Notes: generated from the sequence alone by a model not told the origin. DNA of 64,000 nt from Theionarchaea archaeon (GCA_018992685.1 JACVGT010000003.1:32001-96000); one strand, 5' to 3'. Counted from the first letter of the stretch, positions 51,483 through 54,496 are shown. Made by a program: numbers and translations.

Positions 51483-52991
51483 ATGAATACACATCTACTG
51501 CAGAGAGTAGAGAAACTTGCAGGAGACGATAGTGCTCTAGAACATGCTGAAAAAGTGCAAGAACAAGTTCTACGCAGTATTCTAAAGGCAAACAGAAATA
51601 CTGTATTCGGCAAGGACCATTCATTCTGTGAGATTGATTCCATAGAGTCTTACCAGAAGAGACTACCTCTGGCTCGTTACGATGACTTCAGACTGTATCT
51701 TGAACTGATGAAGGCCGGTGTCCCACATATCCTTCTAGCAGAGGATTTTCCTCGTTGGGCAGAAACCAGTGGAACGCTCTCTTCTCCAAAGCTGTACCCG
51801 ATTCCCGAGGTCATGGCAGAGCATTTTGGCAGAACCCTGGCCAAGATTGTGGTGAGCTGCGTGGAGGAAGAGCCATCCAGAAAATTCCTCCTGGAAGGCA
51901 AGATGCTCATGGTGGTGGCTGATGTGGCAAGCCGGTATGTAGCAGGCAAACCGGTGGGGTACATTTCAGGTGTGGTATCCCATGATGTACAGCAGCTGCC
52001 AGGGATGGCAGAGGCCTTCACTCCTTCTCAGAAGGTGTTAGCTATGGGAGATTGGGAAGAACGGTGGCTGGAACTGACGAGGCATGCTTCGAGAGAGAAT
52101 GTTACCATGAGCTGTTCCACGCCTCCCATTCTTCTGTCATACTTCAAGAAAGTGATTTCAGAATACCGTCCTCTCCTAGGCCTACCCGACACCATACCAA
52201 CGATCTGGCCCAACCTTGAGCTTATAACAGGAGCAGGGGTAAGAATGTCCCTGTACAGGAAGCAGTACCAGAAGCTTCTGGGAGACCAGGTGTGTTGCCG
52301 GGAGTTCTACTGTGCCACAGAAGGGTTCTTCGCCTATCAGAAAGATGAGAGAGAGGGGCTTACACCTATTCTCAACCATGTGTTCTACGAGTTCATTCCG
52401 CTTGACGAGTGGAACCAGATGGAAGAACCCCACAACTACAAGACTCATCCCCTGACGCGACTTTCCTACACTCGGGTTTCCCTCAACACGGACTACGTGC
52501 TGGCAGTGACTACTCCCGGTGGGCTGTACAGCTACATCATTGGGGATATCGTTCGGTTCATTGGGCCTGACAGACTGTTTTGGGTTGGCCGGCTAGGATG
52601 GGAAAGCAGTGTGGCTGGAGAGAAGTTCAACGAAATGCACATGTCCATGCTGAGGCAGTCAATGGAATCTACGCTGGGTGTTGAGATCACCAACCACATG
52701 GCAGCAGTGAAGGACGACCCTTTGCGGTACGTCTTTGCCTTTGAATTCGAGGAGAGCATTGATGTGAACACAGTCGTTGAGACAGTGGACAGGTCACTAC
52801 GGGAGGTAAATGCCATATATGATGATTTGAGGAAAAAAAATGTACTCAAATGTCCAGATATCGTTGCTCTCCAGAAAGGAACTTTTGATCGCTATATCAA
52901 GCGGAAACAGAAAGAGGAAAAGTCACTTGGGCAGATTAAGCCACCGTTGTTTGCAGATTCCGCCTTGATAGATGAGTTGGCAGAAGACTAG
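51483..52991 (+). CDS. GH3-family acyl-adenylate amido synthetase
   Basis: NTVFGK.H.F, TSGT...K..P, YCATEG, FYEFIP, GLYSYIIGDIV, GQIKPP. Confidence 0.9.
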   Translation: MNTHLLQRVEKLAGDDSALEHAEKVQEQVLRSILKANRNTVFGKDHSFCEIDSIESYQKRLPLARYDDFRLYLELMKAGVPHILLAEDFPRWAETSGTLSSPKLYPIPEVMAEHFGRTLAKIVVSCVEEEPSRKFLLEGKMLMVVADVASRYVAGKPVGYISGVVSHDVQQLPGMAEAFTPSQKVLAMGDWEERWLELTRHASRENVTMSCSTPPILLSYFKKVISEYRPLLGLPDTIPTIWPNLELITGAGVRMSLYRKQYQKLLGDQVCCREFYCATEGFFAYQKDEREGLTPILNHVFYEFIPLDEWNQMEEPHNYKTHPLTRLSYTRVSLNTDYVLAVTTPGGLYSYIIGDIVRFIGPDRLFWVGRLGWESSVAGEKFNEMHMSMLRQSMESTLGVEITNHMAAVKDDPLRYVFAFEFEESIDVNTVVETVDRSLREVNAIYDDLRKKNVLKCPDIVALQKGTFDRYIKRKQKEEKSLGQIKPPLFADSALIDELAED

Positions 52992-53017
52992 GTACATCAG
53001 GGGTGGTGAGAAATCTC

Positions 53018-54496
53018 ATGGTTCGATTCCTGCTAGTGAACAGTCACAAGTGGGAACCTCCATCCCCTCCTGCTGCTCTGGATTATGTAGCAGAGCAGTT
53101 GGAGGGTGAGGGTGTTGCCACGGATCTTGTGGATGTAGCCTTTACCAGTGAAGATGATGTGAGAGCCTTGCTTCAGACCACGCACTACGATGGTGCGTGC
53201 ATGACTATCCGCAACCTGGAACGCACCGCCTTTTCTGAGACTCTCCATTTTCCTCTCCCTGCCACGAGGTCCCTCGTCCACTTGATAAAGAGCTACTGCA
53301 AAGGGCCTGTTGTGGTGGGAGGAAATGGATTCTCCATCTTGCCAGAGAGGATTTTGGAGTATGTAGGAGCAGATTACGGCATCTACGGGTGTGGAGAGAC
53401 TTCTCTTCCTTTACTACTCAGGTACATACTCCATGGGGCAGGAAACATATCTGAAATTCCGTATGTGGTCCACCGTGAAGACGGCACAGTGAAGCGCAAC
53501 CCACCTGGACCCTTCAGAAGAGAGCTCCCTGTGGTGAAGAGAGGGCGAGTAGACTATCACATGTATTACAGCCCGGGCCACCAGCACTTTTCTGGATTTG
53601 GAGTCGTTGAGACTAAGAGAGGATGCCCTCACCGGTGCATCTACTGTGTTGAACCCTTCATCAAGGGGAAGCAAGTGCGAGTAAAATCACCTGGTTCTGT
53701 GGCAGCAGAAATTGACTGGTTTCTTGACCAGGGTATCAGCTACTTGTTCATTGCAGACAGTGAGTTCAATGCAGACTACGAAGCTGCAGTGAACCTGGTT
53801 ACCTACCTTAAACAACATGGATATCACCGGAAGATCAGATGGATTGCATATGTGACCCCCACTCTTTTTACAGAGGAACTGGCAGCACTCTTGTCCCAAT
53901 CGGGGGTTCTAAGTCTCATGATAGACTTCGGCCACGTCAACCCGACGATCCTCTCAAACCTTGGGAAGGCCCACACACCTCGGGACATTGAACGTGTCAT
54001 AGCATGGTGTGACGAATATGCCATACCCTTCAGGGGGAGTCTGATGCTGGGAGGTCCTGGGGAAACATATGGCACCATTGAGGAAGCTATAGAATTCTTC
54101 AAGAGGTACTCCTGCAAAGTATTCACGATTTTGGGGATCCGCGTGTTTCCCAATACTCCACTGGGAGAAGCTGTCCAGAGAGAAAGAATTTCAGAAAACC
54201 CACATCTCTGTGGAAAGGTACTCCAGAATGACGATCTCTTGGAGCCAGTCTACTATATTTCTCAGGACCTAGGAGAAAATGTCTTCACGTACTGCGAGAC
54301 CCTCACTGGTGACTCAGAGCAGTTCTATACAGTTACTTCTCCCTTCAGATTGACAAGAATCATGCACGGACCTTTCAGAGGAGTCCATCCTGAATATGAA
54401 CTCTATGGCTGTCCCAAGACCCGCTATCTAACCCGCCTTTCGAGAGATGCAGTTGAAGCTCCGCTTTTTGAGGAAGATGAGGAGAGGTCTTCATGA
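53018..54496 (+). CDS. cobalamin-dependent radical SAM methyltransferase, TsrM/CloN6-like
   Basis: PP.PP.ALDY, TIRN, VVGG.GFS, ETKRGCPHRCIYCVEP, DSEFN, LGGPGET. Confidence 0.85.
   Translation: MVRFLLVNSHKWEPPSPPAALDYVAEQLEGEGVATDLVDVAFTSEDDVRALLQTTHYDGACMTIRNLERTAFSETLHFPLPATRSLVHLIKSYCKGPVVVGGNGFSILPERILEYVGADYGIYGCGETSLPLLLRYILHGAGNISEIPYVVHREDGTVKRNPPGPFRRELPVVKRGRVDYHMYYSPGHQHFSGFGVVETKRGCPHRCIYCVEPFIKGKQVRVKSPGSVAAEIDWFLDQGISYLFIADSEFNADYEAAVNLVTYLKQHGYHRKIRWIAYVTPTLFTEELAALLSQSGVLSLMIDFGHVNPTILSNLGKAHTPRDIERVIAWCDEYAIPFRGSLMLGGPGETYGTIEEAIEFFKRYSCKVFTILGIRVFPNTPLGEAVQRERISENPHLCGKVLQNDDLLEPVYYISQDLGENVFTYCETLTGDSEQFYTVTSPFRLTRIMHGPFRGVHPEYELYGCPKTRYLTRLSRDAVEAPLFEEDEERSS

Follow-up and report, generated by a model that had tools for sequence, protein, structure and literature searches.

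In a 64,000-nt stretch of DNA from a Theionarchaea archaeon (hereafter, the window), two adjacent genes encode a GH3-type amide synthetase and a cobalamin-dependent methyltransferase of the TsrM class. On balance we favour, with modest confidence, reading them as a dedicated operon confined to Theionarchaea that turns common metabolites into a C-methylated amide conjugate of a carboxylic acid and an amino acid. Both genes are present and lie on the same strand, as the sequence-only reading of this DNA had proposed:

51483..52991, + strand: GH3-family ATP-dependent acyl-acid amido synthetase, 502 aa (three GH3 Pfam domains)
52992..53017, + strand: intergenic spacer of 26 nt with the RBS of the second gene (from sequence)
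53018..54496, + strand: TsrM-class cobalamin-dependent "radical SAM" methyltransferase, 492 aa (Pfam, NCBIfam, TsrM alignment, AF2 model)

The longer reading frame of the methylase spans 53003..54496 on the + strand (497 aa from GTG 53003), however translation probably starts at ATG 53018, because the orthologues start with MVRF, the database copy has 492 aa and an GGGGTGGTGA RBS lies just upstream. The genes had been described as a few bases apart; the spacing is indeed short, but with this start the spacer is 26 nt instead of 11 nt. It leaves no room for a second promoter, and from the spacing alone we infer that the two genes are co-transcribed. The one promoter earlier assigned to the pair is deduced rather than observed, the sole conserved promoter-like element lying ~180 nt before the GH3 gene begins. 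Housekeeping genes surround the pair, the flanking genes encoding CDC48, HSP20, a wHTH regulator, a PHP phosphatase, a DUF835 protein and GyrB. No precursor peptide or further biosynthetic gene was found in the flanks examined, leaving the suggestion of a modified peptide as product unsupported, and the thiopeptide (quinaldic acid) cluster context is not present around the methylase gene. ARAGORN detected no tRNA between 50900 and 55000.

Two features of its sequence show the first enzyme to be a complete adenylating amide synthetase of the GH3 type. Its N-terminal, central and C-terminal domains (PF03321, PF23571 and PF23572) score 101.2, 47.8 and 57.6 bits against a cut-off of 23.6 each, and its nucleotide-binding motifs TSGT (residues 95-98), YCATEG (276-281) and GLYSYIIGD (347-355) align to those of JAR1 and correspond to the types SSGTS, YGSSE and GLYRYRLGD listed in PMC12493201. 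By pattern match, all three are retained in 29/29 Theionarchaeal orthologues. Among plant GH3 proteins, which conjugate indole-3-acetate and jasmonate (PMC12493201), JAR1 (4EPL), GH3.5, GH3.6 and GH3.8 are the sequence matches in the PDB (E 4e-11 to 3e-6); they have the fold family and motifs in common with the window protein, but the similarity is very distant and the window protein is ~80-110 residues shorter. The nearest relatives outside Theionarchaea are Bacteroidota GH3 proteins (28-32% identity), and the best NCBIfam match is OlsH (NF052613; 182.6 bits, residues 19-488). OlsH has been shown to act as a bacterial GH3 that joins fatty acids to ornithine; it is the GH3-like lyso-ornithine lipid synthetase from Singulisphaera acidiphila and likewise carries the three nucleotide-binding motifs (PMC12493201). 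The analogy to auxin conjugation drawn from plant enzymes is not supported, as the best-named relative is a fatty-acid/ornithine ligase. The resemblance to OlsH has its own limits: the window protein falls far under the 620-bit cut-off, and its gene has no OlsI (alpha/beta hydrolase) or OlsG gene nearby, neither an alpha/beta hydrolase nor an N-methyltransferase being found among the flanking genes examined. Our literature search returned no GH3 enzyme described in archaea.

The GH3 gene lies directly upstream of the methylase gene in all five Theionarchaeal loci compared (window, G001, G002, L104 and L105). This adjacency persists at 55-67% protein identity and through at least 45% protein divergence, with spacers of ~11-27 nt. 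The two families have an identical, restricted phyletic pattern, near-equal numbers of Theionarchaeal protein clusters (32 and 30) and, in nine GH3/methylase pairs of database orthologues, a longest contig of equal size; a search of metagenomes with the GH3 protein gave two loci, nearly identical to each other, and the protein clusters imply roughly 25 further contigs. We consider, from these sequence comparisons, that the operon is specific to the lineage Theionarchaea, a group of uncultured sediment archaea. Among the nearest bacterial relatives of the methylase, which belong to its residue class, no GH3 gene was seen at any of 79 loci (flanks of at most 8 kb, many loci being short), so that the methylase class generally needs no GH3 partner; the gene context there is uninformative, the commonest neighbours being a PAS histidine kinase-type family (12 loci) and MeaB (7). 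The conserved synteny of GH3 and B12-radical-SAM genes that the sequence-only reading asked to be sought accordingly stands within Theionarchaea and does not extend to these bacteria. A full-text literature search found no such gene pair described in archaea, in agreement with what had been claimed.

The pair is joined by a third gene, of the ThiF family, at two more distant loci; its NCBIfam scores to TcdA (50-57 bits) and SAMP E1 (45-52 bits) are low. As the ThiF family includes TcdA and E1-type activators, this gene, together with the solitary bacterial methylase relatives in their varied contexts, raises the question whether the two enzymes are merely neighbours without a common pathway, or act on a macromolecule such as the nucleoside of a tRNA or the C-terminus of a protein. 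In that case the ThiF-family enzyme would suggest that a carboxylate is activated on a tRNA base or on a small protein. We regard this as quite improbable given the adjacency in 5/5 loci with a leader in common and the matching phyletic pattern. The ThiF gene also appears dispensable, being absent from the window and giving no tblastn match in the 91%-complete genome, and no ThiS/ubiquitin-like ORF was seen. From general knowledge, GH3 enzymes are known to us as acting on small molecules only, which argues against a macromolecular substrate.

The second enzyme matches the Pfam B12-binding and Radical_SAM models with 42.0 and 77.4 bits against cut-offs of 32.1 and 29.5. Pfam and the AF2 model (pLDDT 94.3) together give it the architecture of TsrM, namely a cobalamin-binding Rossmann domain, a radical-SAM partial barrel and a C-terminal domain. 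Three motifs previously noted in the sequence were located where claimed (all + strand, from sequence, residues counted from ATG 53018):

53204-53215, + strand: TIRN, residues 63-66
53624-53656, + strand: CPHRCIYC-VEP, residues 203-213 (the CxxxCxxC-VEP motif)
53756-53770, + strand: DSEFN, residues 247-251

An alignment with TsrM (E 4.9e-41) places TIRN on TVRN (Arg69), CVEP on CVEP (Glu236) and DSEFN on DSEFN (Glu273), so that R65, E212 and E249 of the window methylase correspond to R69, E236 and E273. The roles of these residues are taken from three reviews (PMC8992657, PMC9204698 and PMC12931638): Arg69 reaches the lower axial face of cobalamin from a Gly-x-Thr-x-Arg loop, whose first residue is Cys rather than Gly in the window methylase; Glu236 is the polar residue after the cluster motif; and Glu273, within the D-S-E ("GGE") motif, ligates the unique iron. 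At the sequence level all residues associated with the polar mechanism are thus retained, as the sequence-only reading held. PMC8992657 describes a Glu at the position of TsrM Glu273 as widespread among radical SAM enzymes, and this Glu is alone no proof of cluster capping. The Arg is conserved in 118/118 aligned methylase relatives and the second Glu (E249) in 117/118, and among 30 Theionarchaeal methylases the first position (E212) is Glu in 29 and Asp in one, with E249 in all 30.

Structural comparison points the same way. The best match of the predicted model is TsrM (6wtf_B; TM 0.80, rmsd 3.0 A, E 2.6e-36, 499 columns), with the next entry 14 orders of magnitude weaker in E-value, which is the outcome that the earlier proposal of a TsrM-like enzyme called for. 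The window methylase is nevertheless not a TsrM orthologue, judging from its sequence, although it belongs to the TsrM class. Its identity is 29.9% to TsrT and 24-27% to TsrM, and its NCBIfam scores are 221.9 bits for TIGR04072 (cut-off 360), 165.1 for TsrM (TIGR04428, cut-off 500) and 99.4 for BzaD (cut-off 450), the top family being TIGR04072 and not TsrM. With TsrM/TsrT (Kitasatospora setae 6WTE and 6WTF; TIGR04428) it has in common the three-part architecture, the three motifs and a clade of Glu/Glu proteins. It differs in being only 24-30% identical and ~65-80 residues shorter, in its lineage-specific C-terminal tail, and in being archaeal, outside a thiopeptide cluster and partnered with a GH3 ligase.

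To place the methylase in the wider family, we used 150 representatives at 50% identity, those most similar to the query. Glu or Asp at the first position is paired with Glu at the second in 59/63 cases, whereas Tyr at the first position goes with V/I/L at the second in 63/70 and with Glu in 0/70. When Tyr-class proteins were scanned (10 of the 70 representatives, on which the TIGR04072 label of this class is based), TIGR04072 was the best family in 10/10 and reached its cut-off in 6/10; the Tyr plus aliphatic signature is one derived in this analysis and not a curated definition. In a FastTree phylogeny of the 150 representatives with a single TsrM reference, Amycolatopsis TsrT, the smallest clade holding both the window methylase and TsrT has 54 tips, of which 52 are Glu/Glu, two are other and none is Tyr (support 95). 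The two proteins are not sisters and both have long branches, the Theionarchaeal clade having a separate stem (1.08 changes per site) and a C-terminal tail peculiar to it. The methylase thus groups with TsrT and outside the TIGR04072 type, as expected from the earlier assignment, which had also named CloN6 as a relative; that kinship is not close, since a 2026 review puts TsrM and CloN6 in different sequence-network groups (PMC12931638). The three-residue TsrM signature marks a distinct clade, carried by 59 of the 150 sampled proteins, including Theionarchaea and many anaerobic bacteria.

These classes bear on whether the pair serves a lipid or amino-lipid pathway, where the GH3 enzyme would make an N-acyl amino acid like OlsH and the methylase would modify the lipid chain. 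The best-named families of both enzymes, OlsH with 182.6 bits and the TIGR04072 "lipid biosynthesis" type with 221.9 bits, speak for it, as does the OlsH precedent of fatty acid-ornithine coupling (PMC12493201), but both scores are far under their cut-offs of 620 and 360. TIGR04072, the ladderane-cluster type, likewise has the lower-face cobalamin Arg (144/145 aligned representatives); its tested members differ in carrying Tyr plus an aliphatic residue (V/I/L) where the window methylase has Glu plus Glu, and they fall outside the clade of the window methylase and TsrT, which is without any Tyr-class member. Nor is there a fatty-acid-synthase-like context: no OlsI/OlsG-like, FabF, ACP or other lipid gene occurs in the flanks examined. 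By established chemistry, an unactivated alkyl carbon is out of reach of polar methyl transfer (PMC12931638), and a part for TIGR04072 in ladderane synthesis is so far a proposal (PMC13459092). A lipid pathway is therefore very unlikely in our judgement. A search of five bacterial genomes for a true TIGR04072 member found none over the cut-off (0/5).

The original proposal went further and named an indole or pyrrole acid (tryptophan, indole-3-acetate or pyrrole-2-carboxylate) as substrate, giving a C-methylated aryl-acyl amino acid that is possibly a signal. TsrM, the sole characterised member of the Glu/Glu clade, methylates C2 of tryptophan (PMC8992657), Amycolatopsis TsrT has TIRN, CVEP and DSEFN strings identical to those of the window methylase, and plant GH3 enzymes accept indole-3-acetate and jasmonate (PMC12493201). 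The genome also encodes an IorA orthologue (780 bits, cut-off 650.9), so that, from the known role of IorA, aryl-pyruvates could yield aryl-acetyl units. We still hold this substrate to be unlikely, and nothing in the data identifies it: the TsrM equivalog cut-off is widely missed (165.1 vs 500 bits), the identities to TsrT and TsrM are low, the Theionarchaeal methylases sit on their long separate stem with a tail of their own, and one characterised member says little about a clade with 52 Glu/Glu representatives of uncharacterised role. On the GH3 side, the matches to plant enzymes are weak (E 4e-11) and OlsH is nearer.

Cofactor tailoring would be another use for such chemistry, the pair methylating and ligating a heteroaromatic part, e.g., a benzimidazole- or imidazole-type base, in the manner of BzaD. 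This enzyme is predicted to methylate 5-methoxybenzimidazole at an sp2 carbon, a reaction called "reminiscent of TsrM" in PMC12931638. BzaD is the third-best NCBIfam family of the window methylase at 99.4 bits, far under the cut-off of 450, and scores 131-193 bits for the bacterial Glu/Glu relatives, which adjoin MeaB in 7/79 loci. The genome has at least 12 B12-radical-SAM matches, meaning that cobamide is in heavy use, yet the flanks hold no other bza or cob genes. From general knowledge, we know of no step for a GH3 ligase in the benzimidazole-base pathway, and altogether we consider cofactor tailoring highly improbable.

Our preferred reading, a dedicated operon for a methylated conjugate, is joined by a conserved control region upstream of the GH3 gene:

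51280..51293, no strand: 14-bp palindrome TGCATGAC/CATGCA abutting the BRE/TATA box (candidate operator; largely invariant, 4 loci)
51294..51305, + strand: archaeal BRE/TATA-like box, an A-rich stretch then TTATATA (sequence; conserved in 4/4 loci)
51327..51482, + strand: structured 5′ leader, ~155 nt (conservation and folding)
51327-51362, + strand: invariant 5′ block of the leader, starting GGAGGAAAGG (alignment of 4 loci)
51450-51462, + strand: anti-SD of the leader, with the variable middle upstream and a loop downstream (folding)
51470-51482, + strand: SD of the leader (folding)

Across four loci, 20/32 columns of the palindrome/TATA region (51276-51307) are invariant, against 13/165 further upstream. 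The exact palindrome occurs once in the 3.03-Mb genome and is a candidate operator for a transcription factor. Archaeal TATA boxes have a usual spacing to the transcription start, from which the start is predicted near 51327-51330. In the leader itself, invariant columns number 30/36 in the 5′ block, 8/83 in the middle and 24/37 in the 3′ block (four sequences), and the minimum free energy of -66.6 kcal/mol corresponds to z = -5.45 against 200 shuffles. A hairpin sequestering the SD forms in the predicted fold of 3/4 leaders; in the fourth (L024) the 5′ end is already paired with the anti-SD and the SD lies in a weaker local hairpin. If the SD is instead kept unpaired during folding, 4/4 leaders pair their 5′ end with the anti-SD, at a cost of 2.9-5.0 kcal/mol. 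Mutually exclusive SD-hiding and SD-exposing pairings are thus predicted in 4/4 leaders, on thermodynamic grounds. Covariation among the four sequences is not significant, amounting to three pairs changed on both sides, a number reached by 232/500 shuffles, with 93.5% of cells paired. Among 461 GGAGG-type starts in the genome, CCTCC lies upstream of 13, and the fold around the start is equally tight in seven.

We thus describe the leader as riboswitch-like, with a 5′ end that, in the modelled folds, can free an SD otherwise locked in a hairpin. Like SD-hiding translational riboswitches and RNA thermometers, it has a predicted SD hairpin and a competing long-range helix closing a structured domain; it differs from known riboswitches in lacking an Rfam match. 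A search of 50900-55000 against Rfam (E<=1) returned no leader family, the sole match being a chance microRNA. The leader model matches this site only, in G000-G002. Within G000, neither the palindrome nor the 5′ element nor the leader model recurs outside this locus, so that no regulon is definable. Two coding candidates were rejected: a leader peptide, for which L104 and L024 have a short ORF after the 5′ element whereas the window and G001 are without its start codon and differ by a 1-nt indel, and minus-strand ORFs overlapping the leader, which have no counterpart in the other loci.

Taken as a pathway, the methylase would work like TsrM: SAM would methylate cob(I)alamin, and the resulting five-coordinate methylcobalamin would hand its methyl group, as a cation, to an electron-rich carbon or other soft nucleophile, without a 5′-deoxyadenosyl radical. 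We suggest this mechanism because the Arg would block the lower cobalt face, the unique iron can be capped by the D-S-E Glu, and the two cofactors would have a polar Glu between them. The GH3 enzyme would adenylate the carboxylate of the methylated molecule, or of its partner, and couple an amine, and in some species the ThiF-type enzyme may activate a second carboxylate for further ligation or cyclisation. Our best guess, from the chemistry alone, is that the acid partner is aromatic or heteroaromatic. The leader would gate translation by letting the 5′ end and the SD compete for one anti-SD strand, and stabilisation of the long-range helix by a ligand, a protein or the temperature would turn the operon on. 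The fullest version, where a metabolite sensed by a riboswitch-type leader turns on a pathway of two enzymes, one of the TsrM class, to a C-methylated aromatic acyl-amino acid in ordinary metabolism, we regard as unlikely.

To our knowledge, TsrM is the sole radical-SAM-fold enzyme characterised for radical-free methyl transfer from cobalamin, CloN6 being only predicted to do so, and we know of TsrM from thiopeptide antibiotic synthesis only. If this fullest version is true, an archaeon would make a molecule resembling an auxin conjugate, non-radical methylcobalamin chemistry would extend beyond antibiotic synthesis, and there would be a first physiological handle on dozens of TsrM-like sequence clusters from anoxic sediments. 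Few riboswitch classes are known in archaea, and the leader, if ligand-responsive, would be a new one. The Theionarchaeal operon is the one place where a TsrM-type enzyme is accompanied by both a conserved partner enzyme and a regulatory leader of its own, which gives two independent handles on the substrate.

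The operon consists of two genes on the forward strand of the window, arranged as follows.

51483-52991 (+), GH3-family protein of 502 aa; all three GH3 domains score above the Pfam gathering thresholds
53003-54496 (+), methylase ORF of 497 aa; B12-binding and Radical_SAM domains score above the Pfam gathering thresholds
TIRN motif of the methylase, residues 63-66 (numbering from ATG 53018)
CPHRCIYC-VEP motif of the methylase, residues 203-213 (same numbering)
DSEFN motif of the methylase, residues 247-251 (same numbering)

The gene pair and its TIRN, CxxxCxxC-VEP and DSEFN motifs, described in the sequence-only reading, are confirmed by Pfam and by motif position. 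ATG 53018 is most likely the true start of the methylase gene, because orthologues open with MVRF, the database copy is 492 aa long and a ribosome-binding site, GGGGTGGTGA, precedes this codon; the spacer to the GH3 gene is therefore 26 nt. Upstream of the operon lie genes for a wHTH regulator, HSP20 and CDC48, and downstream lie a convergent, putative membrane protein without family, a PHP/HisJ-type phosphatase, a family-less protein, DUF835 and GyrB. Judged by annotation, these flanking genes are housekeeping genes or lack an assigned role, and none of them is a candidate for a further biosynthetic gene or a precursor peptide. The convergent gene (54656-55351, -) encodes 231 aa that look multi-pass membrane-bound by sequence, keeps its position in all loci at 56-61% identity and has no match in Pfam or NCBIfam. 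Within the 64-kb window, Rfam and ARAGORN find a single feature, a tRNA-Thr (CGT) at 47-120 (+).

The closest solved relative of the methylase by sequence is TsrM (E 4.9e-41), with TIRN aligned over TVRN, CVEP over CVEP and DSEFN over DSEFN. As set out in reviews (PMC8992657, PMC9204698, PMC12931638), Arg69 lies under the cobalt and keeps a sixth ligand away, the unique iron is ligated by Glu273 of the D-S-E motif instead of by SAM, and Glu236 puts an unusual polar side chain between the cofactors, at a position that is hydrophobic in radical methylases. An AlphaFold2 model (alignment of 118 sequences, pLDDT 94.3) likewise has TsrM as its best structural match (6wtf_B, TM 0.80, rmsd 3.0 A, E 2.6e-36), followed by the MCR glutamine methylase 9ccb (E 1.2e-22). 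However, the NCBIfam ranking conflicts with these matches: TIGR04072, a "lipid biosynthesis" family of the ladderane-cluster type, gives the highest score (221.9 bits), ahead of TsrM (165.1) and BzaD (99.4), yet all three scores, including that of TIGR04072 itself, fall below their cut-offs.

Because of this conflict, we tabulated the residues at the three TsrM positions in the best 150 of 21,975 representatives of the wider family. The Arg is kept in 144 of the 145 representatives having a letter in that column, and the two acidic positions divide the family: among these best 150, 59 carry E/D at the first and E at the second position and 63 carry Tyr with V/I/L, while none of the 70 Tyr-class proteins combines Tyr with E. 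A scan of 10 from the Tyr class of 70 gave TIGR04072 as the best match every time (315-414.5 bits), six times at or above the cut-off. None of ten scanned proteins of the acidic (E/E) class reached any NCBIfam cut-off, and TsrM was the best match of six of the eight bacterial ones; TsrT, annotated on an Amycolatopsis plasmid, bears all three motif strings of the window methylase. For a FastTree phylogeny, 141 representatives remained after removal of nine with fewer than 400 aa; together with the window protein, TsrT, four Theionarchaeal orthologues and, as outgroup, three paralogues from the window's genome, they made up 150 rows. In this tree the smallest clade common to the window protein and TsrT has 54 tips, comprising 52 E/E, two other and no Tyr-class tips (support 95). 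In a 123-row tree the Theionarchaeal sequences come together as a single clade with support 100 and a stem of 1.08 changes per site. This clade and TsrT are not sisters there, and support at the deep nodes is low (17-23). Residue classes, scores, structure match and trees together argue for membership of the methylase in the TsrM mechanistic class, and against both orthology to TsrM and assignment to TIGR04072. The TsrM-type mechanism proposed from sequence is supported and sharpened.

More broadly, the Arg-bearing TsrM/TIGR04072 superfamily parts cleanly into E/D+E and Tyr+aliphatic proteins (bacterial loci L025-L103; P0241-P0388), a split that may offer a simple way of telling polar from radical chemistry by sequence. 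The window's genome (G000) holds at least 12 B12-binding radical-SAM genes, including paralogue clusters at G000:C18:31422-37366 (five matches) and G000:C10:31136-37062 (three matches) with 22-25% identity to the window methylase; a comparable pile lies on contig C49 of G001, a genome of the same genus.

Named database relatives come from Theionarchaea or Methanofastidiosia archaea. Among the window's genome and 40 relatives, methylase orthologues are restricted to the window's own genus, with one in G001 (83% identity, truncated by the end of its contig) and one in a second congeneric genome, G002 (57%); these three genomes of the genus, out of 34 in the order, are also the ones that hold GH3 orthologues. 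In a large protein collection, the methylase has 32 clusters at 53-100% identity and the next ones are all at or below 38%, and the drop is equally sharp for GH3, with 30 clusters at 57-100% and then at most 32%, mostly from Bacteroidota. At 50% clustering, a single representative holds the entire Theionarchaeal methylase group.

Conserved synteny, proposed as a check on the pairing, holds within this lineage and does not extend to the bacterial loci searched. All the Theionarchaeal loci recovered have GH3 directly upstream of the methylase: the window, G001, G002 and two metagenome loci (L104 and L105) nearly identical to each other. Nine methylase and nine GH3 clusters also agree in the size of their longest contig, which suggests common contigs and does not imply adjacency. 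Of 80 genome loci gathered with the methylase alignment and searched by tblastn with the GH3 protein, the sole match was the Theionarchaeal one, leaving 0 of 79 bacterial loci, many of them short, with a GH3 gene. The bacterial relatives have varied neighbours, among them MeaB in 7 of the 79 loci. The more distant Theionarchaeal loci carry a third, ThiF-family gene:

L024 (G002 locus), 9037-9852
L104 (metagenome locus), 10992-11819
L105 (metagenome locus), 2744-3571

This gene has a 4-nt overlap with the methylase stop codon, and its product of 271-275 aa has the uncharacterised PRK08223 as nearest model. By tblastn, no copy was found in the window or the rest of the 91%-complete G000 assembly.

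Three nucleotide-binding motifs are described for plant GH3 enzymes and OlsH in PMC12493201; the window GH3 aligns at all three, and pattern matching finds them in 29 of 29 Theionarchaeal orthologues. Its best-named relative, OlsH, scores 182.6 bits against a cut-off of 620 and plant GH3 enzymes match at E 4e-11 or weaker; these matches do not reveal the acyl substrate. There are also short GH3-like paralogues of 372-419 aa, in which the C-terminal domain is absent or went undetected, and in the sister genus (G003) a DinB-family gene separates one of them from another B12-radical-SAM gene, which lies two genes upstream:

G000:C12:59595-60854 and G000:C9:75355-76473, two short GH3-like paralogues of the window's genome
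G003:C95 (L006:1441-2853, L006:3027-3542, L016:1378-2577), GH3-like/B12-radical-SAM region of the sister genus

Upstream of the GH3 gene, four loci have in common a 14-bp palindrome joined to a BRE/TATA-like box, followed by a leader of roughly 155 nt that is conserved in blocks.

Invariant alignment columns upstream of the GH3 gene in four loci
Upstream of the palindrome: 13/165
Promoter: 20/32
First 36 nt of the leader: 30/36
Middle of the leader: 8/83
Last 37 nt of the leader: 24/37

In the 3′ block, a predicted hairpin hides the ribosome-binding site and is the MFE fold in three of the four sequences. The invariant 5′ end (GGAGGAAAGG) is predicted to be able to pair with the same anti-Shine-Dalgarno strand: when the Shine-Dalgarno is forced free, this long-range helix is predicted in all four sequences at a cost of 2.9-5.0 kcal/mol, and the MFE of the G002 leader (L024) already contains it. 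The predicted fold of the window leader is far more stable than those of its shuffles (z = -5.45), and among 461 GGAGG-type starts in the window's genome just 13 have CCTCC upstream and just seven an equally tight fold around the start. A covariance model of the leader finds this site alone in three genomes (153-157 bits; next best 30.8), an Rfam search of the region gave no family match, and the four sequences show no significant covariation in the central domain. We read the leader as a putative translational switch, whose trigger may be a ligand, a protein or temperature. A 378-aa wHTH protein at 46963-48099 (+), with an AsnC/MarR/TrmB-like N-terminus, shares 92% identity with its counterpart in L104, against 55-84% for its neighbours; it could be a candidate binder of the palindrome.

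In the proposed pathway, the methylase would pass a methyl group by polar chemistry from methylcobalamin to an electron-rich carbon, and GH3 would form an amide at a carboxylate at the expense of ATP. The substrates should be common metabolites, because there are just two core genes and these are placed among housekeeping genes. An indole or pyrrole substrate, as first suggested, found no support; our best guess is an amino-acid conjugate of an aromatic or heteroaromatic acid, and the genome's IorA orthologue could in principle make aryl-acetyl units available, which is circumstantial. Less likely rival readings are a lipid pathway, cofactor tailoring, action on a macromolecule, and neighbouring genes that have no pathway in common. 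A full-text literature search found no paper that pairs GH3 (Gretchen-Hagen-3) and B12-radical-SAM enzymes, and none that describes an archaeal GH3 enzyme. The regulatory features, namely the palindrome/TATA element and the leader with its predicted Shine-Dalgarno-hiding hairpin, are new in this analysis, and the locus as a whole combines enzymes of known kinds in a new way, specific to this lineage and with an unusual leader.
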